Of a stretch of DNA of 64,000 nucleotides, positions 9,466 to 55,891 are shown piece after piece (the stretch's first letter is position 1; each line of letters starts with the position of its first letter). The stretch is from Pseudomonadota bacterium (lineage in GTDB: Bacteria > Bdellovibrionota_G > JALEGL01 > DATDPG01), in contig JAZDDX010000020.1 of assembly GCA_043809315.1 (NCBI GenBank), positions 72,031 to 136,030 of the forward strand, read 5' to 3'. A program made the translations under genes and the position numbers. Under the pieces are notes generated by a model, which was given only the letters and a program-made list of their open reading frames with translations, ran no database searches and was not told where the DNA came from.

Positions 9466-9498
9466 TGAATTTTTGCGCGGCAAAGGATAGTACGCGCC

Positions 9499-19362: not shown

Positions 19363-19482
19363 CGATTCAGCGGTAGTCAGTACTATGCGCCCCGCCCCAA
19401 GGCAAGCGCGCGCGGCGGCAAAGGGGTGACAGAAAAACGAACCGTTGATATGAAGGCGATCCCACGGGGAAAAGGAGAAAAC

Positions 19483-20985
19483 ATGGCTAAATTGGGGCTC
19501 GAAACTCACATCGTCGATCCGACCGTCTACGACCGGGTGATCCAGCGGTTCCGCGAGGCAAAAATCGCTCTTCCAACCTTCGCACAGCTGGCCGATCCAA
19601 AGACGATCCCGTCGAAGGTCCGCTCCGCTCTCGCGAACGTCGACCCGAACTCCCCGAACTCCTTGAACCTCTTCCGGGTTCATTGGTTCAACTCGGCGAA
19701 TCAGAAAGAGATCGTCGACGTTCCGGAACATATCGTTCTCCCCCCCTCTTTGACGGGGGTCAAAGCCCAGATCGTCGTCATGATCGGCGCCCACTTCCCG
19801 ATGATCTCAGCCCACAAAGTGTTGGCCGCATACGGATGCCTCGTTCCCCGTCTCGTGACGGGGCAATTCGACCCGGTCGCACACAAGGCGATCTGGCCCT
19901 CAACCGGAAACTACTGCCGGGGCGGCGTGGCGATCTCCCGCATCACCGGATGCCGGGGGGTAGCGATCCTGCCGGAGGGGATGAGCCAGGAGCGGTTCAA
20001 CTGGCTCGACAAGTGGGTCTCCCATCCCGACGACGTGATCAAGACGTACGGAACCGAGAGCAACGTCAAGGAGATCTACGACAAGTGCAACGAGCTCGAT
20101 CGGGATCCGAAGAACGTCATCTTCAACCAGTTCTGCGAATTCGGAAACCACCTGGTCCACTACCTCTGCACCGGCAAAGCAGCCGAGACCGTCTTCAAGG
20201 CACAGCAAGCGAAGAATAGGGACTCCAGGCTTCGAGCCTTCGTCTCCTGTTCCGGCTCGGCCGGCACGATCGCCGCGGGGGATTACCTAAAAGAGAAATT
20301 TGGGTCGCTGATCGTCGGCTCGGAAGCGGTGGAGTGCCCGACCATGCTCTACAACGGGTTCGGCGAGCACAACATCCAGGGGATCGGGGACAAGCACATC
20401 CCGTACATCCACAACGTGATGAACATGGACGTGGCGGTCGGAATCACCGACAAGGCGACCGACACGCTCGACGTCCTCTTCAACACGGAGGCCGGGCGGG
20501 AGTACCTCACCCAGCGGAAAGGAGTTCCGGCGGAGATCGTGAACCGCCTCTCCCTCCTCGGATTCTCCTCGATCTGCAACATCTTAAGCGCGATCAAGAC
20601 GGCAAAGTACTACCAGATGAATGCACGCGACGTGGTCGTGACGGTCGCAACCGACAGCGCGGCGATGTACGGAACCGAGCGTGAGAAAGCGCTCAAAAAG
20701 TATTTCCCGAAGGGATTCGACACCGTCGAGGCGGCCGAAACGTACGGACGACACATGGCGGGGACCCAAATCGACCACCTCCGTGAGCTCTCGTTCCACG
20801 AACGGCACCGGATCTTCAACCTCGGCTACTACACCTGGGTCGAGCAACAGGGGGTGACGGTCGAAGAGTTCAACGCCCGGCGGAAGCCGGAGTTCTGGAC
20901 GGAGCTTCAGACCCGGATCGCGGCGTGGGATAAGATGACGGAAGAGTTCAACAAGAAGACGGGCGCCCTGGATCGGATCGGATGA
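19483..20985 (+). CDS. PLP-dependent enzyme, fold type II (tryptophan synthase beta superfamily), function unknown
   Basis: AHKV (Schiff-base Lys), PSTGNY, GSAGT, HNIQGIG. RBS AAGGAG precedes MAKLG. Confidence 0.8.
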   Translation: MAKLGLETHIVDPTVYDRVIQRFREAKIALPTFAQLADPKTIPSKVRSALANVDPNSPNSLNLFRVHWFNSANQKEIVDVPEHIVLPPSLTGVKAQIVVMIGAHFPMISAHKVLAAYGCLVPRLVTGQFDPVAHKAIWPSTGNYCRGGVAISRITGCRGVAILPEGMSQERFNWLDKWVSHPDDVIKTYGTESNVKEIYDKCNELDRDPKNVIFNQFCEFGNHLVHYLCTGKAAETVFKAQQAKNRDSRLRAFVSCSGSAGTIAAGDYLKEKFGSLIVGSEAVECPTMLYNGFGEHNIQGIGDKHIPYIHNVMNMDVAVGITDKATDTLDVLFNTEAGREYLTQRKGVPAEIVNRLSLLGFSSICNILSAIKTAKYYQMNARDVVVTVATDSAAMYGTEREKALKKYFPKGFDTVEAAETYGRHMAGTQIDHLRELSFHERHRIFNLGYYTWVEQQGVTVEEFNARRKPEFWTELQTRIAAWDKMTEEFNKKTGALDRIG

Positions 20986-22379
20986 CGGCGGCGGGCCCGA
21001 CCTTCACCTGCAGCGGTTGCGAGTATGTCGTTCCGAAAACGGAACGGTATCCGTTCCGCTGCCCCAAGCAGAAGACCGGCGACAACATCGACCATGTCTT
21101 GCGGGAGGAACTTCCGGCCAAAGATCCGACCCTTGTGGCCCTTTTCGACTCGACGGAACCGAATCCGTTTCTGAAGTATCGAACCCTCTTTCACTCCTAT
21201 CGTGCCGCCCGGTCCTGGGGGCTTTCGGATGCCGACTATATCGGGATCGTGCAACGCCTCGACGAAGCAGTCGCGAAGATCGACGGGCGCGGGTTCGTGG
21301 AGACCCCTTTCGCTTCGATCTCGAAACTCGGTGACGCACTTGGCTTCAAAGAACTGTGGGTAAAAGATGAAACCGGAAACGTCTCCGGTTCGCACAAAGC
21401 CCGTCACACCATGGGGATCATGATCTGGATGGAGATGGTCCGGAAGGCGTTCCCGAACGGATCCAATGAACCATCTTTGGCGATCTCGAGCTGTGGAAAC
21501 GCCGCACTCGCGGCAGCGGTCGTCGCGAAGGCGGCCGGCCGGACACTCGACGTCTTCGTCCCCCCCGACGCCCACCCGAACGTCGTCCACCGGTTGCAGG
21601 AACTCGGGGCCCGCCTCGTCACCTGTCGTCGCGAGGGGAATCAACCCGGCGACCCCTGTTATCTCCGCTTCAAAGAGGGGATCGCAAAAGGCTCCCTCCC
21701 GTTTACAGTTCAGGGGAACGAGAACGGGTTGACGATCTCCGGAGGGAAGACACTGGCCTATGAGATGGTCTCCCGATGGCGAAGCGGACGTCCGGTCGAT
21801 CGTCTCTTCGTCCATGTCGGCGGTGGAGCGCTGGCGAGCGCGATCATTCAGGGGATGGAGGATGCGAAAGCGATCGGTCTCATCGATCGACTTCCCCGAA
21901 TTCATACGGTTCAGACCGAAGGGGCTTATCCACTCGCGAGGGCGTACCAGAAAGTGGCCGAGCGAGTGGCGTTCCGAAATTTGTGCGCCGAAAAAGAAGT
22001 CGAGAAACGATCCATGTTCTTATCCACCGACAAATCGAGACAGATCGTGAACGAAGAGCTTTGGTTCGCGGCGAACCACCGTTCGACCTTCATGTGGCCG
22101 TGGGAGAGCGAGCCGAAGTCGATCGCGCACGGGATTCTGGATGACGAAACGTATGACTGGCACGCGGTCGTGGGCGGGATGCTCCGGAGCGGTGGATATC
22201 CCGTCGTTGTTTCGGAAGAGAATCTGAAAGAAGCCCACCGTCTCTGCCACGAGCATACGAAGATCCGCGCCGACCACACGGGAACCGCAGGCTTGGCCGG
22301 TGCCCTGAAGCTCCGTCAGGACGGAGTGATCCTTCCGAACGAGACGGTCGCCGTCCTCTTCACCGGCGTGGAACGCTGA
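20982..22379 (+). CDS. Threonine synthase-like PLP-dependent enzyme
   Basis: N-terminal CxxC...RCP knuckle, KDETGNVSGSHKAR, SSCGNAA, VGGGAL, LFTG. ATGA overlap with the upstream gene. Confidence 0.8.
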   Translation: MTAAGPTFTCSGCEYVVPKTERYPFRCPKQKTGDNIDHVLREELPAKDPTLVALFDSTEPNPFLKYRTLFHSYRAARSWGLSDADYIGIVQRLDEAVAKIDGRGFVETPFASISKLGDALGFKELWVKDETGNVSGSHKARHTMGIMIWMEMVRKAFPNGSNEPSLAISSCGNAALAAAVVAKAAGRTLDVFVPPDAHPNVVHRLQELGARLVTCRREGNQPGDPCYLRFKEGIAKGSLPFTVQGNENGLTISGGKTLAYEMVSRWRSGRPVDRLFVHVGGGALASAIIQGMEDAKAIGLIDRLPRIHTVQTEGAYPLARAYQKVAERVAFRNLCAEKEVEKRSMFLSTDKSRQIVNEELWFAANHRSTFMWPWESEPKSIAHGILDDETYDWHAVVGGMLRSGGYPVVVSEENLKEAHRLCHEHTKIRADHTGTAGLAGALKLRQDGVILPNETVAVLFTGVER

Positions 22380-22383
22380 CCGT

Positions 22384-22614
22384 TTGACCGACAAAGAAGC
22401 GAAAGAGTTGTTGATCCGCCGCTATCGGCGCCGAGGCTTCCTTGTGAAGCAGGTGCGGAGGTTCGAGCATTCGTACATCGTTGTCTTCGGCCAGGACGAG
22501 AAAGGGAGCGGGCTCGGTCCTCGGGGCTTGAGCTTCGCTCGGTGCAATCCTCCGACCCTGGATTCGGGTGCACAGCTCGAGCTGCCGGTGAAAAGAAAAA
22601 AACGCCGTCCGTAA
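22384..22614 (+). CDS. Possible small hypothetical protein
   Basis: 76-aa ORF with a TTG start 4 nt after the upstream stop. It fills the gap, but I recognise no motif. Confidence 0.35.
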   Translation: MTDKEAKELLIRRYRRRGFLVKQVRRFEHSYIVVFGQDEKGSGLGPRGLSFARCNPPTLDSGAQLELPVKRKKRRP

Positions 22615-22724
22615 CTCCGAAATAAAACTGAATTTCGGTCCATTTCCGACCGGTTTCCGGACCCATCCAACAAGCTCGACTGCTCAACCTCCCGTAACCA
22701 CAATAAGTTCTTCGAAATCCCGGT

Positions 22725-22740
22725 TGGCACACCCCCTGCT
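22725..22740 (+). promoter_or_regulatory. sigma54-like -24/-12 element
   Basis: TGGCACA-CCCC-CTGCT against consensus TGGCACG-N4-TTGCW. GG and GC are correctly spaced. Confidence 0.45.
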
Positions 22741-22758
22741 CCGCTCTTTGGAGCCTGA

Positions 22759-22788
22759 TTGACGATTGTATACTACTTTGTGTACACT
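22759..22788 (+). promoter_or_regulatory. sigma70-like promoter of hicAB with overlapping palindromes
   Basis: TTGACG-N18-TACACT. Palindromes GTATAC (22768-22773) and GTGTACAC (22780-22787) overlap it. Confidence 0.55.
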
Positions 22789-22804
22789 TATGGGGTGTTG
22801 AGTC

Positions 22805-22987
22805 TTGAAAAAACGCGATCTCGAACGAATTCTCAGAGGTTTGGGTTGGCGTCTCCTGCGCCAGGGTGGAAGCCACGAAATCTGGACCAACGGAACCGAA
22901 ACGGAATCAATTCCACGGCATGTGGAAGTGAACGAGATGGTCGCAAGAGCCATTCTTAAACGGGTGAGGAAACATCATGAATCTTGA
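22805..22987 (+). CDS. hicA: HicA-family toxin
   Basis: 60 aa; L..LGW.L.RQGGSHEIW...IPRH.EV. Confidence 0.9.
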   Translation: MKKRDLERILRGLGWRLLRQGGSHEIWTNGTETESIPRHVEVNEMVARAILKRVRKHHES

Positions 22988-23399
22988 AGGAAGAGTCATT
23001 CCCCCCAAGGGGCGAAGAAACCCGCACTGGTCGGTGGAAATCCCCCTGCTGGAGATCTACACACAAGGAAGATCCCGGAACGATGCCTACCGGATGGCCA
23101 GGGATGCGGTCGAAAGCCTCGTCAATCGGAAGGGATTCCACGTGACCGTAACGCCGGGGAAAGGGAACGCGTTCGACGTCTCGGCAAACGATTTCCCGAT
23201 CTTCCTGGCCTTTGTCTTGGCCCGTCTTCGAACCGGTCATCGCCTCTCCACGCGGCAGGTGGCCGAACGCCTTTCGTCCACTTCGCCCAATGCTTACGCC
23301 CGGTACGAGCGGGGACGCGCCATGCCGAAATTGGATACACTCTTGACCCTCCTACGTGCCATCAATCCTCGACTGTCTCTCGTGCTACGGACAGCCTGA
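22977..23399 (+). CDS. hicB: HicB-family antitoxin with C-terminal XRE HTH
   Basis: P.L.IYTQG.S..DA..MARDA, followed by LSTRQVAERL...YARYERG..PKLDTL. Confidence 0.85.
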   Translation: MNLEGRVIPPKGRRNPHWSVEIPLLEIYTQGRSRNDAYRMARDAVESLVNRKGFHVTVTPGKGNAFDVSANDFPIFLAFVLARLRTGHRLSTRQVAERLSSTSPNAYARYERGRAMPKLDTLLTLLRAINPRLSLVLRTA

Positions 23400-24836
23400 T
23401 CGCGAACCGAACCGGACATACAACCGAGCCCCGCCGACCTCCCGAACGGGCCGGTAGCGTCCCTTGAGCAGAGGTTCAAATCCCGCGGGGGTATCGAGGC
23501 CGGTCACCACGAGTGCGGGCCGGCCGTTCTCGATCCACCGAACGATCTGGGGCACGGTCGCGATCCGGTACCGCGCAACCTGCTCCGGCGTCAGCTTCTC
23601 CTCCATCTTCGTCACGACAAACCCTTGATTCATCCCCGGTAGAAACCTTCGTCCAGACTCCACGAGGTACCCGTTCCACCACGACAGAACCTCGTCATCG
23701 GGACAGGTGAGTTCCTGGATCGCCTCCCCAACGGCATGGACCTCCCGGCGATCATTCACAGACGACGTTCCGTCTCCGCCGGCGATCCATTTCAGATCTT
23801 CGACAACCGGGAAGAGGCTCCAAACCGCGGCACAGATGCCGACGAGACTCAGAATCTTCCTGCCACGGGAATCGGCGCCAATCCGCGCGACGACCGCCAC
23901 GAGCGTAAACACCCAAACCGGAAGCACGTATTCGGGATAGAAGGGAACCAAGCGGATCGAACCGATCGCCATTAGGAGCCCTGCCAGGAACAGCCCTAGG
24001 ACGGACTCCAATCCCCGTTTCTTTTTGCTCCAGATCCAGACGGCCATCGCGAGAAGCGGAAGGAGGAGCAGCCAGTGTGCTCCCGAAAACGACCATCCGA
24101 ACGACACAAGCTGATGAACAATTCCGCGCGTCTGCCACACGCCGCGGAGACGGTGATATCCGATCCAGTTGAAGCCGACGACGTCCGGAGACATGCAAAA
24201 AAGAATCAACGACGGGATGCAGGGGACGAGACACCCGAAGAGAAAACTTCTGAGTTGTCCCGTTTTTCGCGCACGAATGCCGACAATCAATGCCGGCAGT
24301 GCGAAAAGAAGGCGGATGTTTCCCGCCCCCCCCGAGAGAAGACCGGAGCCGAATGCGAACGTCCTCGCCCCCTCCATCTTTTCCCCCGCACGGTCGACCA
24401 GAACAAACGACCACAGAACCAGCGCCATGGCCAGCGCATGAGGCTTTACGATCGGAAAACAGACCCAGGAGAGCGGATGTCCAAAGAGAATCCAGAGACA
24501 GGCCAGGCGGTCCCACGGAGAAACCCCGGATTTCCGGAGATAGAACCAGACCCCCGTCCCGAGAAAGATCAGGGAGAAGAACGACAAGAAACGCCCCGCG
24601 ATCAGGCTACCGCCGAAGAGCGCGCCCCATCCGGAAAGAATCGGCAGGTAGAGCGGCATCTGTTCGTAGAAGAAATCGAGATGCGGGAGAAACCCCCGAC
24701 GCAACTCATGGGCTGCGACCAGATACAGCCCCTCGTCCCGGCTCCAGGGCAAGGCAAACAAGTGTACGAGCCAGATGGAAACAAGGAGCCCAAGCCCCAG
24801 GACGAGAGCTTGATTTCGCCTTACGGAACGATCCAT
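23385..24836 (-). CDS. Polytopic GT-C (ArnT/PMT-like) glycosyltransferase
   Basis: First loop SRDEGLY, PLYLPIL, R..S motif, many TM helices, C-terminal soluble domain. Confidence 0.7.
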   Translation of the reverse strand: MDRSVRRNQALVLGLGLLVSIWLVHLFALPWSRDEGLYLVAAHELRRGFLPHLDFFYEQMPLYLPILSGWGALFGGSLIAGRFLSFFSLIFLGTGVWFYLRKSGVSPWDRLACLWILFGHPLSWVCFPIVKPHALAMALVLWSFVLVDRAGEKMEGARTFAFGSGLLSGGAGNIRLLFALPALIVGIRARKTGQLRSFLFGCLVPCIPSLILFCMSPDVVGFNWIGYHRLRGVWQTRGIVHQLVSFGWSFSGAHWLLLLPLLAMAVWIWSKKKRGLESVLGLFLAGLLMAIGSIRLVPFYPEYVLPVWVFTLVAVVARIGADSRGRKILSLVGICAAVWSLFPVVEDLKWIAGGDGTSSVNDRREVHAVGEAIQELTCPDDEVLSWWNGYLVESGRRFLPGMNQGFVVTKMEEKLTPEQVARYRIATVPQIVRWIENGRPALVVTGLDTPAGFEPLLKGRYRPVREVGGARLYVRFGSRSGCP

Positions 24837-24930
24837 GTTCCGGCCTGCCCTTGGAGGGCCTTGCCGACGCTTTCCGGGTTCGTGATGAGCACCTGCTTCC
24901 CGCCGTTTTCGAGGTACCAGACCACCGCCT
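24821..24930 (-). repeat. Diverged copy of the carbamate kinase 3' end (direct repeat of 25652-25761)
   Basis: 24830-24930 vs 25661-25761: 92/101 identical by manual alignment. Translates as AVVWYLENGGKQVLITNPESVGKALQGQAGTWIVP*. Confidence 0.95.
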
Positions 24931-25667
24931 CAACCCGACAATCGAACTTCGATTCGATTGGACGTCACGCCTGCCGCGGTCACGCGGACCATGTGTTTTC
25001 CGGGAGCGACGCGGGGTTCGAGTTCCTCGAACCGGATATTGAAACCATACCCCCCATTCGGAGCCGCCATGGGGTTTCCCGAGAAACGACTGACCCTATA
25101 CCTGTGGATGGTTCCGTCCACCTCCACCGCGAAAACAATTGCAGGGCCAATCACCTGCACGGGCTGGGTGTCGTGGTTGAAGAAGTTACATTTCAAAAGC
25201 GGTCCCCCCTGCGAACGGGCACCGATAAACTCAATCATCAACGATGGAACCGCCTTCAGAGCTTCGAGCGGAACGATGTGGAACGAAGCTTTGTTGGATG
25301 GAACTCCGTTCACTGACAGAACCGTCTGGTACTCCCCGATCGGGAGGTGAAGGGGCGGATAGGCCACCCACGTGGAGTGGGTCGCTCGGATCGGATCGGT
25401 CAGATCCTTCCAGGGATGGTCGTACATCGCTCTCCCTTTGGAATCGGTGATCACAATGTGGGCGTTCCGCAGCCGAACGGGCTTTTGCGACTCGGGGTAA
25501 ACCCTGAATTGAAATACGACCGTTTGATCAGCCGTGTAGGCGACCGAACTCGTGTTTGCGGTTACTCGAAGCTGCTTATCGTTCGTCGGGGCCCCGCGCC
25601 CTTGACTGATCCCGACCGTGAACAGAGCCAGGAGAATAAGGGGCTTGGCAACTAGGGCGTGATCCAT
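24930..25667 (-). CDS. Hypothetical secreted protein
   Basis: 245 aa, N-terminal hydrophobic signal, beta-rich character. Lies between the two arcC-end repeats. Confidence 0.65.
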   Translation of the reverse strand: MDHALVAKPLILLALFTVGISQGRGAPTNDKQLRVTANTSSVAYTADQTVVFQFRVYPESQKPVRLRNAHIVITDSKGRAMYDHPWKDLTDPIRATHSTWVAYPPLHLPIGEYQTVLSVNGVPSNKASFHIVPLEALKAVPSLMIEFIGARSQGGPLLKCNFFNHDTQPVQVIGPAIVFAVEVDGTIHRYRVSRFSGNPMAAPNGGYGFNIRFEELEPRVAPGKHMVRVTAAGVTSNRIEVRLSG

Positions 25668-26608
25668 GTACCGGCCTTACCTTGGAGAGCCTTGCCGACG
25701 CTTTCCGGGTTCGTAATGAGCGCCTGTTTCCCTCCGTTTTCAAGGTACCAGACCACCGCCTGGATCTTCGGCGCCATCGAACCTTTCGCGAAATGCGTCC
25801 CCTCGGCGAGGTACTTCTTCGCCTCGGCCAGCGTCATTTTGTCCAGCCACTTCTGATCCGGCTTCCCGAAGTTGATGGCGACCTTTTCGACCGCTGTTGA
25901 GATCACGAAGAGATCGGCCTTGATGTTCTGGGCCAGAAGGCTCGTCGCGAAGTCCTTGTCGATCACCGCTGCGATTCCGATGTAATCGCCGTTCCCTTTG
26001 TCGACGACCGGGATTCCCCCACCGCCGGCGGTGATCACGATGATCCCCTTTTCGATCAGCGCTTTGATCGAATCGAGTTCGACGATCTCCTTCGGCATCG
26101 GAGAGGCGACCACGCGGCGCCAACCGCGCCCGGCATCCTCCGACACGCTCCACCCGGATTGTTCAGCCCGTTTTTTCGCTTCCGCCTCCCCCATGAACCC
26201 GCCGATCGGCTTGTTCGGGTTCGCAAAGGCCGGATCGTTCTTATCGACCAGCGTCTGCGTCACCAGGCTCACGCACGACTTCTTGATCTTCCGGCGGAAC
26301 AGCTCGTTCTGCAGGTTCTGCTGGAGCGCATACCCCAGAGCCCCTTGGCTGTCGGCGCCGCAGACGTCGAGCGGCACCTCGTGCAGCCCTTCCACCCGGT
26401 GGGCGATCTCGCTCCTTCGCAAGATGAACCCGACCTGCGGACCGTTCCCGTGCGTCACCACGACCTCCCACCCCGCCTCGATCATGTCGGCGATGTGGTA
26501 GCAGGTCTGTTTTGCCGCTTGGTACTGGTCCGAGACCGAACGACGATCCTGATCGACGATCAGCGAGTTCCCGCCGATCGCGACCACCGCGGTTTTTTTT
26601 GTGCCCAT
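25652..26608 (-). CDS. arcC: Carbamate kinase
   Basis: VAIGGNSL, THGNGPQVG, KPIG, GWRRVVASP, GGGGIPV, AVIDKD, GSMAPK. Confidence 0.95.
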   Translation of the reverse strand: MGTKKTAVVAIGGNSLIVDQDRRSVSDQYQAAKQTCYHIADMIEAGWEVVVTHGNGPQVGFILRRSEIAHRVEGLHEVPLDVCGADSQGALGYALQQNLQNELFRRKIKKSCVSLVTQTLVDKNDPAFANPNKPIGGFMGEAEAKKRAEQSGWSVSEDAGRGWRRVVASPMPKEIVELDSIKALIEKGIIVITAGGGGIPVVDKGNGDYIGIAAVIDKDFATSLLAQNIKADLFVISTAVEKVAINFGKPDQKWLDKMTLAEAKKYLAEGTHFAKGSMAPKIQAVVWYLENGGKQALITNPESVGKALQGKAGTWITP

Positions 26609-26618
26609 GGTTTCTCCT

Positions 26619-27599: not shown

Positions 27600-27602
27600 C
27601 GC

Positions 27603-28562: not shown

Positions 28563-28700
28563 GATTTATATCTCCTTAAATTTATTCATATTTTGAATAT
28601 CGACCGCGACCCCTCTCGCGACTCGGAACTCGATTACCTATATCCAAAGCGGCTTTGCCGCAAGTTTCCCGGGAGGGGAAATAGGTATGGTGTCCCCCGA

Positions 28701-32584: not shown

Positions 32585-32659
32585 GGCGCCTTACCTCCCG
32601 CGGGAGGCAGATTATCCTGACTCCCCTCGGATCGCTATATCGTATATTGTCCGACCCCT

Positions 32660-35158: not shown

Positions 35159-35162
35159 TCCG

Positions 35163-35885
35163 TCACTTCTTCGAATCGGGCCCGATCGGAATCACGTCGT
35201 CTGAAAGATAGATGCCGAGAGGGCTGACGCCGGGTTTCCCTACCGGGACCCGTTCCCCCCTCTTCTTGAAATAATCTTTCCAGATTTTCCACGCACGATC
35301 GCGAGGGTTTCGCGGATCCCCGAAGTACATCGGCCGATACGAAAACAGTCTGCGATTGGGCAAGGCCTTGGAGAAGACGTCCGCGACCAGCTCAGAGCAA
35401 TAGTACTTCCCGTTATTCCGGAGAAACGCTTCGTCGTAAGGTCTCCCCAAATATCGCTTCGCGACCCCGACGATGCGCACGCGATCCTCCAAGGAAAGAC
35501 CCCGGATGTGTCCGAACCGCCGCCGTTGTTCGGGGTGCGGAAGCTTCCTCAGGCGGGCACTCACTTTTTCATACGGAGTCCGTTGAACCCCGTCCCAAGC
35601 CTCGTACAGGAACCAGCGCCCCTCCTCCTCTGAAAGAATACCGACATGCGACAGAGAGGGTCCCTTCACGCGGAATTGCCGTTTCGTGACGTCCGCGATC
35701 GCGTCACACAACTTGCCGCATCCCAAATCAAGAAACACGAGATCGCCGGACTGAATCGCCGGCGGACTCGCAACGGGCGGAGGAGGGGGTGGGACACACG
35801 CCGAAGAGATGAGTCCGACAAGGAGCGCCAGGATTCTGAATTCGGGGTTCAGTCGTTTGTCCCCATTACCGGAATTCCCGGACAA
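35163..35885 (-). CDS. YiiX/YebB-like permuted papain-like (NlpC/P60) lipoprotein
   Basis: Lipobox-like ISSAC, GDLVF, SHVGI, LGRPYD, YYCSELV (His before Cys). Confidence 0.8.
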   Translation of the reverse strand: MSGNSGNGDKRLNPEFRILALLVGLISSACVPPPPPPVASPPAIQSGDLVFLDLGCGKLCDAIADVTKRQFRVKGPSLSHVGILSEEEGRWFLYEAWDGVQRTPYEKVSARLRKLPHPEQRRRFGHIRGLSLEDRVRIVGVAKRYLGRPYDEAFLRNNGKYYCSELVADVFSKALPNRRLFSYRPMYFGDPRNPRDRAWKIWKDYFKKRGERVPVGKPGVSPLGIYLSDDVIPIGPDSKK

Positions 35886-38124
35886 TCTCCCAGAGCGTTT
35901 CGCGGACGACCGTGTTTTCGCGGAAATAAACCGTTTCTTTGAGTCGATCCTGGCACGACTCGAGAAGCGAAGTGATCACCCCGTCGACGGATTTAGTGAT
36001 CGTCTCTTCGTCCTCTTTCTTGGCCAGCGCTCGGAGCCCCTCGGTCCCGACCTTTTGTTCCTTCAGAACACGCGCCAAATCGGAATGGATGAGTTTCATC
36101 CCTTCCCGGATCCCCGCCTGTTCCTTCTCCGGCGACTCCGCAGACATCTTGAGTTTCTCTTTCCTGTCGACCACCTCCTGGAACCGATCGATCGCCTCGC
36201 TTGAGCACAAAGCCGCTGCGAACTTGGTGGTCAGCTCCTCGGACGTCAACGCCTTCGGCTCGCTCTTCCCGCGCTTCACCTTGTCGATCATCCGGATCAC
36301 CTCTTTTTTCCGGTCGATTGCTTCGTACGCCTGCTCCATCGCGTAGAGGTAGCCGTCCCACGCTTTCCCTTTCTTGAGAAAGAGGATCATTTTCTTCACC
36401 TTCGGGAACGCTTCCGGCCGGATCGACGAGCCATACGTGTCGAGGATCGAGATCGGGTACGGCTTCCCTTTTTTCAGGTCGGTGGCGATCGCGTCGAACA
36501 GTTTCTGGTTGGGTGATTGCACACGGAACTCCACCGGCAGGATCAGATCATCGGAGTTGAACAGGGTTTCCCGCGACAGAAACCGTTCCTCGTTCTTCGC
36601 CGTTTTTTCGGGAAAAGCTCGCGTGGCTAGGACGATCGTTTCAGACGCCGCAACTACCTCTTCCAACGATTTCTCGAGAGTCGAAGCGGTGGTCCGCCCG
36701 CCGGCCAAACAGAACAGGCCGGCCAGCGCCATCCCCATCCCTTGTCGGAGAAGCCGACCGAATCCCTTTTTCCCCACGAAGCCCCCTTCCCGTGCACCCA
36801 CCCGGCCGCGCAAGATCACGGTCTCTGGGGATCCCCGGACCTCCATCCCTTCATAGAGGTTGTAATCGACACGCATGTGGTGAGTCTGAGGATTTTTCGC
36901 GCTCATCGTCTTCTCCCGGTTCGGATCGAAAATCACGAGATCAGCGTCACTTCCGACGGCGATCGTTCCTTTTTTCGGATATAGGCCAAAAAATTTCGCG
37001 GCCGCCGTCGATGTGATCTCGATGAACAGGTTGACCGAGATCCGTCCGTCGACGACCCCTTGATAGAGAAGACTCATCCGGTTCTCCACCCCCGGCCCTC
37101 CCCCGGGAATCTTCGTGAAGTCGATCTTCGATCCCTCGACTTTTTCTTTTAGCAGGAAAGGACAGTGGTCGGTGCCGACGCACTGGATATCGCCATCCGC
37201 CAGCCCTTTCCACAGCGCCTCTTGATCCTGTTTCCCTCGGAGCGGAGGGGACAGCACATATTTCGCCGCTTCCCCTGGGTCTTGATCGTAGAGGGAACGA
37301 TCTAGGAAAAGATATTGGGGGCAAGTTTCTGTCACGACTTTCAAACCCCGCGTGCGAGCGTGGTGAATTTCTTCGAGGCCTTCCTTCGACGACAAGTGCA
37401 CCACGTAAAGGGTTGCTCCTGTCTGCTCGGAAAGGAGGATCATCCGGCGGATGGCATCGGCCTCGGTGGAGTTCGGCCGGGTCAATGCATGATACTTTGG
37501 TGCGGTCTGCTTCTTCTGGAGAGCCTCGACGATCCGTCTCTCGATCTCCGGACCATCTTCGCAATGGAGGCAGATGACGGAGCCATCTTTCACACTCTGC
37601 CGCATCGCCTGTTCGATCACAGAATCGGGCAACATGAGGCGCCCAGGGTAGGCTGTGAAAAACTTAAATGATCTCGTTCCGTCGAGAGTCAAGGCTGACA
37701 TCTCAGGCAAACGCTCGTTCGGAAGGTCGCACACCATCATATGGAAGGCGTAATCAATGACCGCCTTCCCCTCCGCCTTCCGGCGCCATTCGTCCAACCC
37801 CTCCCGTAACGAACGACCTTTTGTCTGCCCGGCGTAGTCGATTACCGTCGTCGTCCCACCGCAGGCAGCGGCGATCGTCCCAGTCTCAAAGTCATCCGAC
37901 GAGACGGTGTCGCCGTACGGCATGTCGAAATGGGTGTGAGGATCGATCCCCCCCGGAATCACGAGCTTCCCGGTCGCGTCGATGGTCAGGTCCGCAGTAC
38001 GATTCAGCTTGGATCCGATCTTCGCGATCGTCTCCCCTTCCACATAGACATCTGCGGTGAGCGTCTTTTCGGCCGTAACGACCGTCCCACCCCGGATCAG
38101 GAGCGAACTATTCTTGCGCGGCAT
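35866..38124 (-). CDS. hydA: Dihydropyrimidinase/hydantoinase (about 460 aa, 38124-36745) read through in frame into a ~290-aa unknown domain
   Basis: PGGIDPHTH, SFKFF, HCE, VVHLS, ETCPQY, GTDH. After GKKGFGRLLR the frame continues into a signal-peptide-like stretch. Confidence 0.85.
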   Translation of the reverse strand: MPRKNSSLLIRGGTVVTAEKTLTADVYVEGETIAKIGSKLNRTADLTIDATGKLVIPGGIDPHTHFDMPYGDTVSSDDFETGTIAAACGGTTTVIDYAGQTKGRSLREGLDEWRRKAEGKAVIDYAFHMMVCDLPNERLPEMSALTLDGTRSFKFFTAYPGRLMLPDSVIEQAMRQSVKDGSVICLHCEDGPEIERRIVEALQKKQTAPKYHALTRPNSTEADAIRRMILLSEQTGATLYVVHLSSKEGLEEIHHARTRGLKVVTETCPQYLFLDRSLYDQDPGEAAKYVLSPPLRGKQDQEALWKGLADGDIQCVGTDHCPFLLKEKVEGSKIDFTKIPGGGPGVENRMSLLYQGVVDGRISVNLFIEITSTAAAKFFGLYPKKGTIAVGSDADLVIFDPNREKTMSAKNPQTHHMRVDYNLYEGMEVRGSPETVILRGRVGAREGGFVGKKGFGRLLRQGMGMALAGLFCLAGGRTTASTLEKSLEEVVAASETIVLATRAFPEKTAKNEERFLSRETLFNSDDLILPVEFRVQSPNQKLFDAIATDLKKGKPYPISILDTYGSSIRPEAFPKVKKMILFLKKGKAWDGYLYAMEQAYEAIDRKKEVIRMIDKVKRGKSEPKALTSEELTTKFAAALCSSEAIDRFQEVVDRKEKLKMSAESPEKEQAGIREGMKLIHSDLARVLKEQKVGTEGLRALAKKEDEETITKSVDGVITSLLESCQDRLKETVYFRENTVVRETLWEIVREFR

Positions 38125-39115
38125 ACCGATCGACCTCGCGGAGGAGTTTCCGCCTCCTCGGTTCCGGAAGAAGGCTCGCCTCGAATGAATTCCGGACGAG
38201 CGTTACGATCTCGTCGCGCGTCAGTTTCAAAGCCTTCTGCGCGGCAAGGAAGTTCTCGTTCACGTATCCGCCGAAGTAGGCCGGGTCGTCCGAGTTCACC
38301 GTGACTTTGAGCCCCGCTTGAAGCATTTTCCGGAGGTTGTGGTCCTCCATCTTCCGGAACACGCCGAGCTTCACGTTCGACAGGGGGCATACTGTGAGGG
38401 GAATCTTGCGGGTGACTAAGCTGCGGGTGAGCTTCCGATCATCGAGCGACCGGATCCCGTGATCGATCCGGCGAACCTTGAGGTGTTTGAGCGAGTCCCG
38501 GATATACGAAGCCGGCCCCTCCTCTCCCGCATGCGCGAACGTCTCGAAGCCGAGTCTCCGGGCCTCCGTGAACACCTCCCGGAATTTTACAGGTGGGTGG
38601 CCAACCTCGTACGAGTCGAGACCGACCCCGACGATCTTCTTCCGGTGCGGCAACGCGTGACGGAGCGTTTCCGTCGCTGCTTCTCCGCTTAAGTGACGGA
38701 GAAAACAGAGGATGAAGTAACTCGACAGATCGAGCTTCCGCTTGGCTTCCTTCGAAGCCTCCCACAGCCCTTCGATCACCGCATCGAATGGAACTCCACG
38801 ATGGACATGCGTTTGCGGGTCAAAGAAGATCTCCGCATGGCGGACATTCTGACTCGCCGCTTTTATGAAATATCCCATCGCCAGATCGTAGAAATCCTCC
38901 GCGTTCCGTAATACCGATGCCCCTTCGTAATACACATCAAGGAAAGTTCGTAACGAGCCGAAGTGGTACGCTTTCCGAATCTCGCTCAGGGTCTCATGCC
39001 GGATTCTGATCCCGTTCCGTTTCGCCAGACGGAGCATCAACTCCGGCTCAAGACACCCCTCGATGTGCAGGTGCAATTCGCACTTCGGAATCCGTTTGAT
39101 GAACTTTTGATCCAA
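38108..39115 (-). CDS. add: Adenine/adenosine deaminase
   Basis: PKCELHLHIEG, FFDPQTH, GLDS, AHAGEE, RIDHG, CPLSN, NSDDPAYF. Confidence 0.92.
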   Translation of the reverse strand: MDQKFIKRIPKCELHLHIEGCLEPELMLRLAKRNGIRIRHETLSEIRKAYHFGSLRTFLDVYYEGASVLRNAEDFYDLAMGYFIKAASQNVRHAEIFFDPQTHVHRGVPFDAVIEGLWEASKEAKRKLDLSSYFILCFLRHLSGEAATETLRHALPHRKKIVGVGLDSYEVGHPPVKFREVFTEARRLGFETFAHAGEEGPASYIRDSLKHLKVRRIDHGIRSLDDRKLTRSLVTRKIPLTVCPLSNVKLGVFRKMEDHNLRKMLQAGLKVTVNSDDPAYFGGYVNENFLAAQKALKLTRDEIVTLVRNSFEASLLPEPRRRKLLREVDRYAAQE

Positions 39116-39131
39116 CCCATTCCCCGTGTTC

Positions 39132-40439
39132 TCAATGATACGGATAGAAGACGAAAAACACGAGGGAAGCCAAGGCCAATACGAGGCGGGGCCAAGTCAG
39201 CGCCTTCCACTCCCGTTTTACGAGTTTCAAGAGGGGGTAGAGAATGAAGCCGACCATGATCCCGATCCCGATGTTGTAGGTGAAACTCATCAGCATCACG
39301 GTCGCAAGGGCAGGCACCGATTCCGAGAAGTCCGAAAAATCGATCTTCCGGACCGCCTCGATCATCAGAATCCCAACAAAGATCAGGGCCGGCCCGTAGG
39401 CCAACGGCGGGATCGCGGTCACGAGAGGGGAGAAGAATAGAGCGCCTAGGAACAAGACGGCGGTCACGACGGCCGAGAACCCACTCCGTCCTCCCGCCTC
39501 GACCCCTGCCGCGCTCTCGATATATGCACCCGCCGTCGTCGTCCCGAGCAATGGAGCAAGGGTCGTAGCCAACGCGTCGGCCAGCATCGGCTTCTCGATC
39601 TCCGGGAGGTTCCCTTTCTCGTCCAGGAAGCCGGCCCGGGCGGAGACACCGATCAGCGTCCCCATCGTGTCGACGAAGTCCATCAGGAAGATCGTCAGGA
39701 TCACCGGGAAGAATCCCCAGGTCAGCGCCCCCCGAATATCGAGTTGGAATGCGATCGGGGCAAGCGAGGGAGGCGCGCTGACGATCCCTCCGGGTGCCGG
39801 AGCCGCCCCGGTTACGAATGCAACGAACGCCGTCCCGAGAATCCCGATCAAAAGTGCGCCCGGAGTCCGGAGCTGGTTCAACACGACGATCAGAAGGAAG
39901 CCGAGGACCGAGAGAAGAACGCTCCACTGCGCGATCTGCCCGATCTTGACCGGCGCCCCCGGCTCGCCGAGGGCGACGATCCCGGCCTCATTGAGGCCGA
40001 TGAACGCAAGGAAGAGACCGATTCCCACGGCAAAACCGTATTTCAGATTCTCGGGAACGGCCTCCGCTAAGAGGGAACGGAGACGGGAGATCGTGAGAAG
40101 TGTGAACAGAATCCCCCCGATGAAGATCGCCCCGAGGGCGGTCTGCCACGAATAACCGAGGACCTTGACCACCGTGTAAGCGACGAAGGCGTTTTCCCCC
40201 ATGTACGGAGCGATCGCGAACGGCCGTTTCGCGTAAACGCCCATCACGAGCGTTCCGACGAACGCCGTCCAGATCGTGGCGACCATCGACGGCCCTTTCG
40301 GGATTCCGGCCGCCTCCAGAATCGCCGGGTTGACGACGATGATGTAGGCGGTCGTCACGAAGGTCGTGACCCCTCCCAGGATTTCGCTTTTCCAATTCGT
40401 TCGCAGTTCCTGAAAGCGGAAGAATCGGGCGATCATCAT
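39132..40439 (-). CDS. NCS2/AzgA-family purine permease
   Basis: EILGGVTTF..AYII.VNP, APYMGENAF, DTMGTL, YIESAAGV..GGRSG. Confidence 0.92.
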   Translation of the reverse strand: MMIARFFRFQELRTNWKSEILGGVTTFVTTAYIIVVNPAILEAAGIPKGPSMVATIWTAFVGTLVMGVYAKRPFAIAPYMGENAFVAYTVVKVLGYSWQTALGAIFIGGILFTLLTISRLRSLLAEAVPENLKYGFAVGIGLFLAFIGLNEAGIVALGEPGAPVKIGQIAQWSVLLSVLGFLLIVVLNQLRTPGALLIGILGTAFVAFVTGAAPAPGGIVSAPPSLAPIAFQLDIRGALTWGFFPVILTIFLMDFVDTMGTLIGVSARAGFLDEKGNLPEIEKPMLADALATTLAPLLGTTTAGAYIESAAGVEAGGRSGFSAVVTAVLFLGALFFSPLVTAIPPLAYGPALIFVGILMIEAVRKIDFSDFSESVPALATVMLMSFTYNIGIGIMVGFILYPLLKLVKREWKALTWPRLVLALASLVFFVFYPYH

Positions 40440-40442
40440 GAT

Positions 40443-41792
40443 TTACCTTTCCGAGCGAAGCGATTTCAGGACCATTTCGATCCAGTGAGGTGGAAAAACG
40501 CCGTCCGCCTCGAAGATCGACCGTTGCTTTTCGAGTCGGTCGGCGACTTCGCCGAAGCTTCGGGGAAGCGCTTGTGCCTGGCTCTCCTCTTTTCGGACGG
40601 AGGCCGCTGTTTTTCGGAGCAATTCATCGATCTTCGGAATCGATCGCGCGGCCGACATCGCCTGGGCGACTCCGGCCAGAAGCAGGTAGGGGTGAGCCGA
40701 ACCGTCCGGCAAACGGAACTCGATCGTCGGGACCGAAACCGCTCTCCCCGAGGCGGTAAATGCGACGGTCGGAATCCGGATCAGCGCCTTCCGGTTGTTC
40801 TGTCCCCATGTGATGAAGCTCGGGGCCTCTTTCCCCTGCCGGAGACGGATGAACGATCCGGGGTTCCGGTTGCCGAACGCCATGAGCGCCCCGGCATTCT
40901 TGACCAGACCGCCGATCAACCACTGAGCCGGTTCCTCCATCGACCCGTCGGGCCGCCGTCCGACGACCCCACGCCCTTTCAAGCGGGGCGAGAAGTGGAA
41001 ATGTAGCCCCGATCCGGCGTGCCCCTCCCGCAAGATCGGATCGAACGTCACGCGGAACCCCATCTGTTGGGCCAGGTTGCGGAGAACCCATTGGGTGAGA
41101 ATCACCGCCTCCGCCGCCGCAGGAAGCGGGGCAAGCCCCATCTCGATCTCATGTTGCTCCCAGATGAACCCTTCGAGATCGGTGGAAGCGACATACCCGA
41201 CCTCGCTGTGACCGTACTTGATCGGAACGCCGAGATCGGCAAGGAGCGTGAGCGCCTTCCGACGGAACGCCTGTCCGAAAACGACCGGCGCCGCGGCGTG
41301 ATACCCGTGCTCATCCGCGACCCGCATGTCGACTTCCGAAGCCCGGTGTCCCAGGAAGAACTCTACCTCCCCCAATGCGTGAAGATCGACGCCGGTCTCC
41401 CCTTTCAACCGCTCGTACGCTTTCCCGAGAATGCTGTCGGGAGATTCCGGCAAGGGAGCGCCGTCCCGCCCGACATGTCCGCAAAGCACGCAGAGCGTGG
41501 GGATCTCTGAAAACGGATCGAGGAACGCTCGATCGAGACGGGGGCGAAGCAACATATCGGACGACTTCGCCTTGATGCCCGATCCGGAAAAGAGGCTCGA
41601 GCCGTCGGCCCGCTCCCCCCCTTCCAGGATGTCGCGCAGATGGCTGGCGTCCCGTGGGGCGAAATCGAGAACCTTCACGTTTCCGTCCCCGCCGATATGC
41701 ATCAGGCTCACGAGGCGGATTTCCCGATCCCGGACGAGACGGATCAGCCGATCGACATCACGTTCCGCTTGAGCCTTCCTTTTTCGCGCCAC
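40443..41792 (-). CDS. Glutamine synthetase family protein
   Basis: DGSS, GEVEFF, GHSEVG, EQHEIE, GSGLHFHFS, NRKALIRIP, IEFRLPD..AHPYL. GTG start after GAGGAGG. Confidence 0.85.
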   Translation of the reverse strand: MARKRKAQAERDVDRLIRLVRDREIRLVSLMHIGGDGNVKVLDFAPRDASHLRDILEGGERADGSSLFSGSGIKAKSSDMLLRPRLDRAFLDPFSEIPTLCVLCGHVGRDGAPLPESPDSILGKAYERLKGETGVDLHALGEVEFFLGHRASEVDMRVADEHGYHAAAPVVFGQAFRRKALTLLADLGVPIKYGHSEVGYVASTDLEGFIWEQHEIEMGLAPLPAAAEAVILTQWVLRNLAQQMGFRVTFDPILREGHAGSGLHFHFSPRLKGRGVVGRRPDGSMEEPAQWLIGGLVKNAGALMAFGNRNPGSFIRLRQGKEAPSFITWGQNNRKALIRIPTVAFTASGRAVSVPTIEFRLPDGSAHPYLLLAGVAQAMSAARSIPKIDELLRKTAASVRKEESQAQALPRSFGEVADRLEKQRSIFEADGVFPPHWIEMVLKSLRSER

Positions 41793-41938
41793 CCGAACCT
41801 CCTCTCCGTTTTTCGTATGACAACCGTTTGAAGTCAAAAACCTCGCATGGCGAAAACCGGTGTTCCGTGCGCAAATCTTGAGCGCTGTTGACGCCTGGCG
41901 TTATTCAACAACTTCAACATCTTACACTTCTTACTACT

Positions 41939-41954
41939 TGGCACGCCTCTGGCA
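41939..41954 (+). promoter_or_regulatory. sigma54-like -24/-12 promoter
   Basis: TGGCACG-CCTC-TGGCA, 44 nt upstream of an ATG that has a strong AGGAGG RBS. An AT-rich tract lies upstream. Confidence 0.6.
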
Positions 41955-41997
41955 CAGAACAACTCTTTGATTACCGGAGAAGGTCAAGGAGGACCCC

Positions 41998-44715: not shown

Positions 44716-44717
44716 GC

Positions 44718-45215: not shown

Positions 45216-45226
45216 ACGCGCCCCCT

Positions 45227-53622: not shown

Positions 53623-53635
53623 CGGTGATTCCCCC

Positions 53636-55872: not shown

Positions 55873-55891
55873 GGTTTCCCTTCGCTCCCGG

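Follow-up and report, generated by a model that had tools for sequence, protein, structure and literature searches.

The reductive degradation of urate by the gene cluster of E. coli and Clostridium was solved in 2025 in two papers, by Li et al. (PMC12507026) and Liu et al. (bioRxiv 10.1101/2025.04.24.650524). The pathway is of medical interest, as the removal of urate in the gut bears on gout. According to these papers, urate is converted to 2,8-dioxopurine by XdhD-YgfM or XdhAC, this product is reduced by YgfK (in C. difficile by UacX, a PydA homologue), SsnA opens the ring, and HyuA leads to 2,3-diureidopropionate. One ureido group is then phosphorolysed by YgeW, with ATP formation by YqeA; the other is hydrolysed by YgeY, and YgeX converts 2,3-diaminopropionate to pyruvate (PMC12507026; bioRxiv 10.1101/2025.04.24.650524). 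Here we describe a related locus on contig JAZDDX010000020.1 of assembly GCA_043809315.1, from a bacterium labelled Pseudomonadota at NCBI and Bdellovibrionota_G in GTDB. The window, i.e. the whole stretch of DNA that was analysed, comprises 64,000 nucleotides (contig positions 72,031 to 136,030, forward strand), and the gene cluster in question spans its positions 19483-41837. The cluster most likely serves purine (urate) ring degradation of the xdh-ssnA-hyuA-ygeW-yqeA kind, with several enzymes of the published route replaced by others.

The two papers disagree on which ureido group YgeW cleaves, a point that a commentary lists as open (PMC12990295). SsnA is the pathway marker of Li et al. 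(IPR017700/TIGR03314), and in Chloroflexota the reductase of the SsnA clusters is of an F420 type, in place of YgfK or UacX (PMC12507026). The 'YgeW' and 'YgeX' neighbours were scored there by Pfam family only (PF00185 and PF00291; PMC12507026), so variant enzymes would not be told apart. Phosphorolysis by YgeW gave a much smaller product peak than hydrolysis, which was ascribed to less favourable thermodynamics (PMC12507026). Barba et al. (2013, PMC4016543) reported a dehydrogenase family 'X1' in ssnA/ygeW/hyuA contexts, as well as pseudo-ATCases, relatives of aspartate carbamoyltransferase (ATCase) that keep STRT and HPTQ and are without RxQ. Their subgroup 1 (HPLA) is the UGTCase Rxyl_2847 of Rubrobacter, which turns allantoate and phosphate into ureidoglycine and carbamoyl phosphate, lies beside a carbamate kinase (CK) gene and is reported as experimentally validated; subgroup 2 (H[ST]LP; Nocardioides sp. 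JS614) has a ygeW homologue, xdhABC and hyuA as neighbours; subgroup 3 (HSLP) comprises marine bacteria (PMC4016543). Subgroup 1 is the only one given experimental support in the published text (PMC4016543).

The window locus shares with the E. coli/Clostridium sporogenes pathway SsnA, HyuA, a molybdenum (Mo) hydroxylase of the xanthine dehydrogenase (XDH) family, a carbamoyltransferase with CK, and a nucleobase permease, all in one locus. It differs in being without YgfK, YgeY, YgeX and a true YgeW; their places are taken by a dihydropyrimidine dehydrogenase (DPD)-like reductase, a YgeW-like enzyme of 326 aa and two unrelated pyridoxal-phosphate (PLP) enzymes, and a pseudo-ATCase is added. 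Genes were called from an open reading frame (ORF) listing with Pfam and NCBIfam profile searches of the window proteins, using the curated NCBIfam cut-offs, and all genes named in the sequence-only reading, a first interpretation made from the letters alone, are present at 19483-41837. That reading took the locus for a purine (or pyrimidine) cluster differing from the known one in four ways and perhaps cleaving both ureido groups with phosphate. The purine cluster and the four differences are real and the double phosphorolysis is plausible, though unproven; the mutual exclusion of the PyrB-like gene and ygeY that it put forward as a test did not hold. The assembly of the window genome (G000) has 2.42 Mb in 44 contigs and is 96% complete, and a second genome (G009), of the same family and another genus, allows comparison. 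Taken as a whole, we lean slightly towards reading the cluster as a variant form of reductive urate degradation (via 2,8-dioxopurine) with double phosphorolysis, an ending by the PLP pair and transfer of a gene module.

The added transferase, an ATCase-like (ATC-like) protein here called pseudo-ATCase (27603-28562, minus strand), passes the ATCase model TIGR00670 with 255.8 bits against a cut-off of 236.95. ATC-like paralogues reach 251-258 bits on this model and canonical Anaerolineae PyrB proteins 357-374 bits; the equivalog cut-off would thus name a non-ATCase 'aspartate carbamoyltransferase'. The protein is 39-41% identical to canonical Anaerolineae PyrB and 85-90% identical to 65 Anaerolineae copies. 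These were aligned with E. coli PyrB and four canonical Anaerolineae PyrBs, giving 67 family members in total (the window protein, that of G009, and 65 ORFs from 80 related loci, of which the remaining 15 yielded no clean ORF and stand outside the alignment). STRTR, R105, HPTQ and R167 are kept throughout the 67. Every one of them also has S80 and R229 replaced (S80R, R229P), K83/K84 and Q231 lost, one residue missing just ahead of R167, five residues inserted, and HPLPR changed to HSLPR. PVV or PVT stands at the RxQ position, and the changes also show against the ATCase of P. abyssi. R229 and Q231 anchor the β-carboxyl of aspartate, and R167 and K84 position its α-carboxyl (PMC4581275). With R167 kept and R229, Q231 and K84 lost, the substrate should have an α-carboxylate next to the reacting nitrogen and no β-carboxylate. 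Judged by its residues the protein is not an aspartate enzyme, and the extra PyrB-like transcarbamylase of the sequence-only reading, lacking RxQ and K84, is hence no ordinary ATCase. The predicted substrate fits the 2-ureido side of 2,3-diureidopropionate or 3-amino-2-ureidopropionate, not N-carbamoyl-β-alanine.

Like the pseudo-ATCases of Barba et al., the window protein keeps STRT and HPTQ, has lost RxQ, reads H[ST]LP as HSLP, and would be annotated as ATCase while being distinct from genuine PyrB, as seen in G009 and Anaerolineae (PMC4016543). It is likened to subgroup 2 by context (ygeW-like gene, xdh, hyuA and CK), not by sequence (PMC4016543). The published table lists GX[SC] or VXP at the RxQ position, in place of the PVV/PVT of the window family (PMC4016543), and the UGTCases of subgroup 1 differ by HPLA instead of HSLP, with no allantoinase-type match accompanying the window protein. 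A search of 1.84 billion representative proteins places the ATC-like protein in a large and diverse clade. Its members have in common the deletion before R167 and an 80s loop of the TRAGD type, and their 240s loops are of many kinds. Only three full-length representatives (74%, 71% and 45% identity) have the HSLPR motif and a similar 240s loop.

The other transferase, an ornithine carbamoyltransferase (OTC)-like protein of 326 aa (26619-27599, minus strand), falls under every NCBIfam cut-off: 272 bits against 306 for OTC, 256 against 288 for N-acetylornithine carbamoyltransferase (AOTCase), and 198-207 against 453-500 for the YgeW models (TIGR03316/NF005538). It scores 187 bits (35% identity) against E. 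coli YgeW and 138 bits against ArgI, and is shorter than the knotted true YgeW of ~396 aa. The DxxxSMG motif is replaced by a Y-x-K-S-W loop, as in E. coli YgeW, with KSW in all family rows shown, and HPLP stands instead of HCLP in 59 of 68 rows. In Anaerolineae clusters devoid of the ATC-like gene, orthologues with 67-79% identity adjoin YgeY, CK or SsnA. The shared KSW loop, the 35% identity, the adjacency to YgeY, CK and SsnA, and the co-occurrence with SsnA described below together mark the OTC-like enzyme, as far as sequence and context reach, as the local and short counterpart of YgeW. Since clusters without the ATC-like gene keep it beside YgeY, CK or both, the short YgeW-like enzyme is the standard transferase of what may be called a 'Chloroflexota-type' lower pathway. 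Both transferases of the window are thus without canonical substrate motifs, and the suspicion that they might be an ordinary ATCase and OTC does not hold up on their sequences. YgeW-like matches in five Anaerolineae genomes (G120, G034, G066, G041 and G112) have one in-frame TGA each, and three others have TAA or TAG; these stops may be match overhangs, errors or recoding.

The enzymes of the standard route are missing from the genome as a whole. Profile searches of the assembly gave best matches of 89 bits for YgeY (cut-off 321.5), 26 bits for DpaL/YgeX (cut-off 532), 309 bits for YgfK (cut-off 835) and 194 bits for YgeW (cut-off 500), and E. coli YgeX, YgeY, YgfM, YqeC and UacT found no tblastn match in it at E<1e-5. 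This is the whole-genome search for ygeY, ygeX and ygfK that the sequence-only reading had proposed; none is over its cut-off, profile and tblastn searches agree that there is no YgeY-like M20 enzyme and no DpaL, and no ortholog elsewhere in the 96%-complete assembly completes the standard route. The 309-bit match is the GltD-like part of a 1256-aa formate-dehydrogenase-like fusion within the window, not YgfK. The M20 protein behind the 89-bit match sits in an argC-argD-AOTCase-argB operon and is most likely an acetylcitrulline or acetylornithine deacylase; apart from the cluster, this protein and the AOTCase are the only M20 enzyme and the only transcarbamylase of the genome. The operon comprises, at G000:C38:86264-91398, argC, argD, AOTCase (410 bits against 288), argB and an ArgE/DapE-type deacylase, and the organism makes arginine by the acetylcitrulline route. 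The best match to a hydantase/AAH-type M20 enzyme in the assembly has 19 bits. No UacY-type D-aminoacylase, as in the C. difficile variant, was found in it, the sole good Amidohydro_3 match outside the cluster being HutI, beside HutU. Three CN-hydrolase domains are present, the best in a Nit-like protein on contig C10, beside lipoyl synthase and 2-oxoacid dehydrogenase genes. Across the phylum, YgeY and YgeW are each found in 0 of the 17 genomes searched.

The upper pathway is represented by enzymes that largely pass their curated cut-offs. On the minus strand follow, in this order, the Mo hydroxylase, SsnA, the ATC-like and OTC-like transferases, and CK. The Mo hydroxylase (30020-32584) belongs to the selenium (Se)-dependent XDH type (TIGR03311, 924 bits against 830) and scores 231 bits against a cut-off of 1102 on the E. 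coli XdhD-type model TIGR03313; 2Fe-2S domains are fused to it, a FAD domain is absent (Pfam Fer2_2, Ald_Xan_dh_C, MoCoBD_1 and MoCoBD_2), and it is a candidate urate/2,8-dioxopurine enzyme. Its stop codon overlaps the start of SsnA by 1 nt, and the two genes are translationally coupled. SsnA (28701-30020; TIGR03314, 504 bits against 455.5; NF005540, 545 against 444) is 33% identical to that of E. coli, and CK (25652-26608; YqeA/ArcC type; TIGR00746, 382 bits against 358) is 51% identical to E. coli YqeA. A 138-nt gap separates SsnA from the ATC-like gene. No promoter- or terminator-like site fell into this gap in a scan of 22500-42400, which was uninformative as a whole (one promoter-like site where 4.1 were expected, 29 terminator-like sites where 20.4 +/- 4.7 were expected).

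Divergent from this run lies the DPD-like gene (32660-35158, plus strand; Pfam Fer4_20, Pyr_redox_2 and a weak DHO_dh match with 21 bits against 27). Its product fuses an N-terminal PreT/GltD-like module to a module like PreA and dihydroorotate dehydrogenase (DHODH), with a C-terminal Fe-S dicluster; the PreA model NF006183 gives 188 bits over residues 432-816 (cut-off 335), and the YgfK model 130 bits (cut-off 835). The DPD order of domains and the lack of YgfK, as the sequence-only reading had them, are thereby borne out, YgfK being far below its cut-off in both protein and genome, and the protein is a candidate dearomatising reductase. Published cases of a DHODH/DPD-family reductase in YgfK's place beside SsnA are the UacX variant of C. 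difficile (PMC12507026) and 'X1' (PMC4016543). Unlike UacX, which is reported to be devoid of the FAD domain (PMC12507026), the window reductase includes a PreT-like FAD/NAD(P)H module of its own; nor is it an F420 luciferase-type enzyme like that of the Chloroflexota variant.

A second minus-strand operon holds, in order, a GlnA-like ligase, the NCS2 permease, adenosine deaminase and HyuA. HyuA (35866-38124; TIGR02033, 567 bits against 393) is of the D-hydantoinase type; its catalytic domain spans residues 8-460, and the protein is 42% identical to E. coli HyuA and scores 270 bits against 358 on the allantoinase model. No AllB-type allantoinase was seen, as tblastn of the assembly with E. coli HyuA yields only HyuA and a dihydroorotase (DHOase)-like gene. 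The HyuA ORF continues for ~290 residues beyond the catalytic domain (35866-36741, minus strand) with no stop between; this Lys/Glu-rich extension opens with a hydrophobic, signal-like stretch, has no Pfam match even at E 0.05, and may be a fused downstream gene or result from a lost stop codon or an assembly error (HyuA of G009 has 477 aa). The adenosine deaminase (38108-39115; NF006850, 504 bits against 419) would provide a feeder step, the permease (39132-40439) matches Pfam Xan_ur_permease with 136 bits, and the ligase (40443-41837; Pfam Gln-synt_C, 151 bits; 174 bits on the GlnA model, whose cut-off is 429) opens the operon.

The gene set recurs in G009. Its contig C174, of 13.2 kb, holds CK, OTC-like, ATC-like, HyuA (477 aa), one further ORF, SsnA, DPD-like and XDH genes; HyuA, the ATC-like gene, the OTC-like gene and CK are consecutive on one strand, HyuA lying directly upstream of the two transferase genes, and the DPD-like orthologue (76% identity) is next to SsnA. 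The ORF between (6027-7301) has no family match and may be spurious. Because this gene set is repeated on a single 13.2-kb contig, the clustering of the pathway genes is not due to chance, and because SsnA, HyuA, the Se-type XDH and CK are over their curated cut-offs as well, urate ring degradation is the most likely identity of the pathway.

By analogy with the published pathway, from which the upper steps to 2,3-diureidopropionate are taken while the family scores give the enzyme types, the route would run as follows. Purines would enter via the NCS2 permease, the adenosine deaminase would deaminate, and a second XDH, encoded near 5.8-9.5 kb of the window (Mo subunit 5804-8056, FeS+FAD subunit 8053-9483, both minus strand; Pfam), would probably oxidise purines to urate. 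The Se-type Mo hydroxylase would then reduce urate to 2,8-dioxopurine, the DPD-like flavoprotein would dearomatise it, SsnA would open the six-membered (reduced pyrimidine) ring, and HyuA would open the hydantoin to give 2,3-diureidopropionate. The OTC-like enzyme is predicted to remove one ureido group with phosphate, probably the 3-ureido group; this position is favoured because substrates of the AOTCase/YgeW lineage (N-acetylcitrulline type) have an acylated α-nitrogen and a distal ureido group, and it agrees with Liu et al. The pseudo-ATCase would remove the 2-ureido group, in keeping with a substrate that has an α-carboxylate and no β-carboxylate. CK would use the two carbamoyl phosphates to make ATP, so that each urate would yield two ATP and not just one, and no YgeY-type hydrolase would be needed. 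The two PLP enzymes would finally stand in for DpaL/YgeX, yielding pyruvate and ammonia from 2,3-diaminopropionate.

The PLP enzymes are encoded on the plus strand by genes that overlap by 4 nt. PLP enzyme 1 (19483-20985) is a fold-type II PALP protein of ~500 aa, weakly CysK-like, with a weak Pfam PALP match and cysteine synthase as best PDB match (44 bits); it belongs to an uncharacterised PALP family of ~490-513 aa, whose Atlas record starts at residue 20 of the ORF beginning at 19426. PLP enzyme 2 (20982-22379) is ThrC/dehydratase-like (Pfam PALP, 130 bits), with all NCBIfam matches under their cut-offs and threonine synthase as best PDB match (49 bits). In the phylum, PLP enzyme 1 occurs only in the two of 17 genomes that have SsnA (G000 and G009). 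An orthologue of PLP enzyme 2 with 67% identity adjoins that of PLP enzyme 1 in G009, on another contig than C174, and four other relatives tested gave no match to it. Pairs of ThrC-like and CysK-like PLP enzymes also recur between CK and SsnA in Anaerolineae regions (20 regions examined). The pair goes with SsnA, and Anaerolineae are almost devoid of DpaL; the pair is therefore a candidate replacement of DpaL/YgeX, and it is a standard member of the Chloroflexota-type lower pathway.

Relatives of the transferase module are also found outside the phylum. A scan with one genome per species gave at least 80 loci with a homologue of the ATC-like protein at 85-90% best-segment identity, almost all labelled Anaerolineae/Chloroflexota. 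The OTC-like gene adjoins the ATC-like gene in 80 of 80 (76 with >60% coverage, median 79% identity), and CK is present after the two transferases in 63 of 80 (median 72% identity). Typically the related operon runs from FolD through 8-oxoguanine deaminase (692 bits, cut-off 532), adenine deaminase and GntR, in some cases followed by YgeY, to the ATC-like and OTC-like genes, and on to CK, an ABC transporter of the Bmp type and a PLP enzyme like ThrC. In 21 of 80 loci the gene directly upstream of the ATC-like gene is a true YgeY (461 bits, cut-off 321), and a CysK-like PLP enzyme of ~512 aa follows in 9 of 80. With 8-oxoguanine deaminase, adenine deaminase and YgeY as neighbours, the module is embedded in purine-catabolic operons in all 80 loci.

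Within the GTDB class of the window genome (15 genomes) and the 17 genomes of the phylum, only G000 and G009 have the ATC-like gene (89% identical between the two), SsnA over its cut-off, the OTC-like gene and PLP enzyme 1. An Anaerolineae origin of the window itself, considered in view of the 85-90% identical loci, was rejected; one other genome of the class and phylum has the gene. A quick maximum-likelihood tree, rooted on long-branched outgroups, places the ATC-like proteins of G000 and G009 as sisters (SH-aLRT, i.e. Shimodaira-Hasegawa-like approximate likelihood-ratio support, 94) within a clade of 69 rows (SH-aLRT 99) whose other members are Chloroflexota except for one row labelled Neomarinimicrobiota; G027, G073, G059 and two library representatives form deeper branches. 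Window SsnA and HyuA are 35-50% and 31-43% identical to the Anaerolineae versions, against 85-90% for the ATC-like protein. This nesting and high identity, set against the low identity of SsnA and HyuA, suggest that the pseudo-ATCase gene was probably acquired from Anaerolineae by horizontal transfer, and that the OTC-like and CK genes were probably transferred together with it. The GC content at third codon positions of the three-gene module (0.82-0.86) is within that of its neighbours (0.67-0.86) and gives no compositional sign of recent transfer. Two records labelled Neomarinimicrobiota and Eisenbacteria (L064 and L027) have the pseudo-ATCase at 86-87% identity, either by further transfer or as mis-binned Chloroflexota contigs.

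Co-occurrence was followed in 101 Anaerolineae genomes, evenly sampled with a requested completeness of >=85%; kin among them are not independent. The ATC-like protein is found in 17 of the 101 (E<=1e-100), SsnA in 76 (E<=1e-100; 73 over cut-off), YgeY in 84 (E<=1e-80; 83 over cut-off) and PLP enzyme 1 homologues in 81. A YgeW-like protein with 158-216 bits, like the OTC-like protein of the window, occurs in 60, true YgeW in 0, and DpaL (E<=1e-60) in one, at 521 bits just under its cut-off. Counted as both present, first only, second only and neither, SsnA and the OTC-like gene stand at 54/22/6/19, SsnA and YgeY at 70/6/14/11, the ATC-like and OTC-like genes at 16/1/44/40, and SsnA and PLP enzyme 1 at 73/3/8/17 (odds ratio 52, not corrected for kinship). 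The published gene set thus does not describe how Anaerolineae finish the pathway, SsnA and YgeY being common and DpaL and true YgeW essentially absent.

The same sample answers the proposal that the PyrB-like gene and ygeY exclude each other. They do not: the counts are 14/3/70/14 (odds ratio 0.93), with YgeY in 14 of 17 genomes that have the ATC-like gene and 70 of 84 that do not, and YgeY is often its direct neighbour, as noted above. The pseudo-ATCase is an add-on in about one Anaerolineae genome in six and usually accompanies YgeY instead of replacing it. Where the two occur together, they may serve one and the same step, YgeY by hydrolysis and the pseudo-ATCase with conservation of energy, or else the pseudo-ATCase may act on a different, though related, compound.

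For G000, which has no YgeY, phosphorolytic cleavage of both ureido groups is the best reading, and a plausible one on the sequence and context described. It has a precedent in UGTCase, which is reported to cleave the diureido acid allantoate with phosphate and is encoded beside CK (PMC4016543); the arginine deiminase pathway, too, phosphorolyses a ureido group and then gains ATP through carbamate kinase, although the window differs from it by the absence of ornithine-binding motifs and of an arginine deiminase context, and by its purine-gene neighbours. Several points weigh against this reading. Since the pseudo-ATCase and YgeY coexist and often adjoin, the former is not a simple YgeY substitute and may have another substrate. 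Phosphorolysis by YgeW is described as less favourable than hydrolysis (PMC12507026), and two such steps in succession would depend on CK drawing strongly on their product. The Nit-type CN-hydrolase on C10 and a YiiX-like C92 amidase encoded inside the cluster (35163-35885; Pfam) may act as ureidohydrolases. The roles of the four substituted enzymes are read from sequence and context, the literature has yet to agree on the order of ureido cleavage (PMC12990295), and the transfer rests on the quick tree with its long-branched outgroups. Finally, a canonical PyrB was not found in the 96%-complete assembly, which leaves room for a residual ATCase role of the pseudo-ATCase; the genome nevertheless has CarB, a DHOase-like gene beside CarB (C16) and PyrF (C11), five relatives (G006, G007, G008, G009 and G017) each have a canonical PyrB, and its absence is taken as assembly incompleteness or loss.

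Only the YgeW-like enzyme might in fact yield carbamoyl phosphate, with the pseudo-ATCase acting on allantoate, on another N-carbamoyl-α-amino acid, or on a minor or stereo-isomeric product of SsnA/HyuA, and with the second ureido group hydrolysed by an unrecognised amidase. This explanation survives best among the alternatives, and we regard it as unlikely. YgeY is as frequent in genomes with the pseudo-ATCase as in the background and is often its neighbour, the only experimentally supported pseudo-ATCase acts on allantoate (PMC4016543), and the large and diverse clade suggests many specificities. Yet UGTCase-type proteins read HPLA where the window reads HSLP, and HyuA scores as a D-hydantoinase and not as an allantoinase, with no AllB-type enzyme in sight. 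The C92 enzyme and the CN-hydrolase would be the candidate amidases; the G009 contig is without the C92 gene, and the CN-hydrolase sits among lipoate and 2-oxoacid dehydrogenase genes. In G009, moreover, HyuA directly precedes the pseudo-ATCase.

Reductive pyrimidine breakdown, which the sequence-only reading had left open, would combine DPD and dihydropyrimidinase with phosphorolysis of N-carbamoyl-β-alanine, urate being no substrate or only an additional one. The full DPD domain order of the reductase and the best scores of HyuA, which are as dihydropyrimidinase/D-hydantoinase, are in line with it. We consider it improbable: SsnA and the Se-type Mo hydroxylase, translationally coupled here, have no role in pyrimidine breakdown, and the pseudo-ATCase keeps the α-carboxylate arginine and loses the β-carboxylate binders, the opposite of what a β-alanine derivative needs. 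Purine deaminases lie beside the module in relatives, and PydA-type reductases are documented in urate clusters (PMC12507026).

It is highly improbable that both transferases are ordinary, the PyrB-like protein being the cell's ATCase and the OTC-like protein with CK an arginine-deiminase-type or biosynthetic module merely adjoining purine genes: the PyrB-like protein does pass the ATCase cut-off (256 against 237) and is the only such match in a genome with CarB, a DHOase-like gene and PyrF, but K84, R229 and Q231 are lost in 67 of 67 members, DxxxSMG and HCLP are lost in the OTC-like family, a canonical RxQ-type PyrB is present in addition to the ATC-like gene in G009 and in four of five Anaerolineae genomes searched whole (that of G009, like that of the closed genome G008, with K84, R167, R229, Q231 and HPLPR intact), arginine synthesis is covered by the AOTCase operon on C38, and the module lies within purine-catabolic operons in all 80 related loci. 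A biosynthetic carbamoyl-phosphate hub, in which CK would replace carbamoyl-phosphate synthase, was also considered and rejected, as CarB is present, the arginine operon has its own AOTCase and both transferases are without canonical substrate motifs.

The pathway itself, the exchange of the reductase for a DPD/PydA type (UacX, PMC12507026; 'X1', PMC4016543) and pseudo-ATCases beside ygeW (PMC4016543) are already in print. In the papers and passages searched, neither a second carbamoyltransferase nor a PLP pair is mentioned for the pathway; nor do they state that a pseudo-ATCase makes the second ureido cleavage, that the short YgeW-like enzyme is the Chloroflexota standard, or that the PLP pair replaces DpaL. 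We tentatively propose, with some doubt, a 'Chloroflexota-type' lower half that was transferred to a small unrelated phylum, with double phosphorolysis by the short YgeW-like enzyme and the pseudo-ATCase, two ATP per urate via one CK, and the PLP pair at its end.

Such a variant would suggest a more energy-efficient lower half, with two substrate-level ATP per purine, and offers candidate enzymes for three steps: an analogue of YgeW, an alternative to YgeY and an alternative to DpaL. If the proposal is true, hundreds of database annotations as 'pyrB' and 'threonine synthase / cysteine synthase-like' would be wrong, and the regiochemistry of the two transferases would help to settle the disputed order of ureido cleavage (PMC12990295). 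What the window contributes further is a naturally YgeY-free genome from a different phylum, evidence of module transfer, the negative exclusivity result, and the combination of the module with a full-length DPD-like reductase and a Se-type hydroxylase.

Between the PLP pair and CK lie an XRE-type helix-turn-helix gene (22977-23399) and two envelope-type ORFs without family, both on the minus strand: a polytopic membrane protein (23385-24836) and a protein with a signal peptide (24930-25667). A tblastn search of the 80 related loci (E<=1e-10) gave no match to the proteins at 23385-25667, directly after CK. Like the ORFs at 41998-43515 and 22316-22876, these two have no Pfam match even at E 0.05, and the four, with the HyuA extension, were not counted as part of the pathway. 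Upstream of the PLP pair, MoeA, MoaC/MoaB and MoaA (15486-19350, minus strand; NCBIfam; start of MoaA approximate) would supply the molybdenum cofactor as supporting genes. The second XDH is followed by a second gene of the adenosine deaminase family (9499-10722, plus strand; Pfam), and near it YqeB/XdhC-like tblastn matches lie on the minus strand at ~4875-5762. Beside the cluster, at 43468-47242 (minus strand), are a CitMHS_2 transporter, a protein with a flavin-reductase domain and a 671-aa protein with two cyclic-nucleotide-binding (cNMP-binding) domains. Further on (49852-58155, minus strand), the 1256-aa fusion (2Fe-2S, GltD-like flavoprotein, 4Fe-4S and molybdopterin oxidoreductase) is followed by a NuoF-like and then a [FeFe]-hydrogenase-like protein, and these genes look like a soluble electron-bifurcating complex of the formate-dehydrogenase or hydrogenase type.

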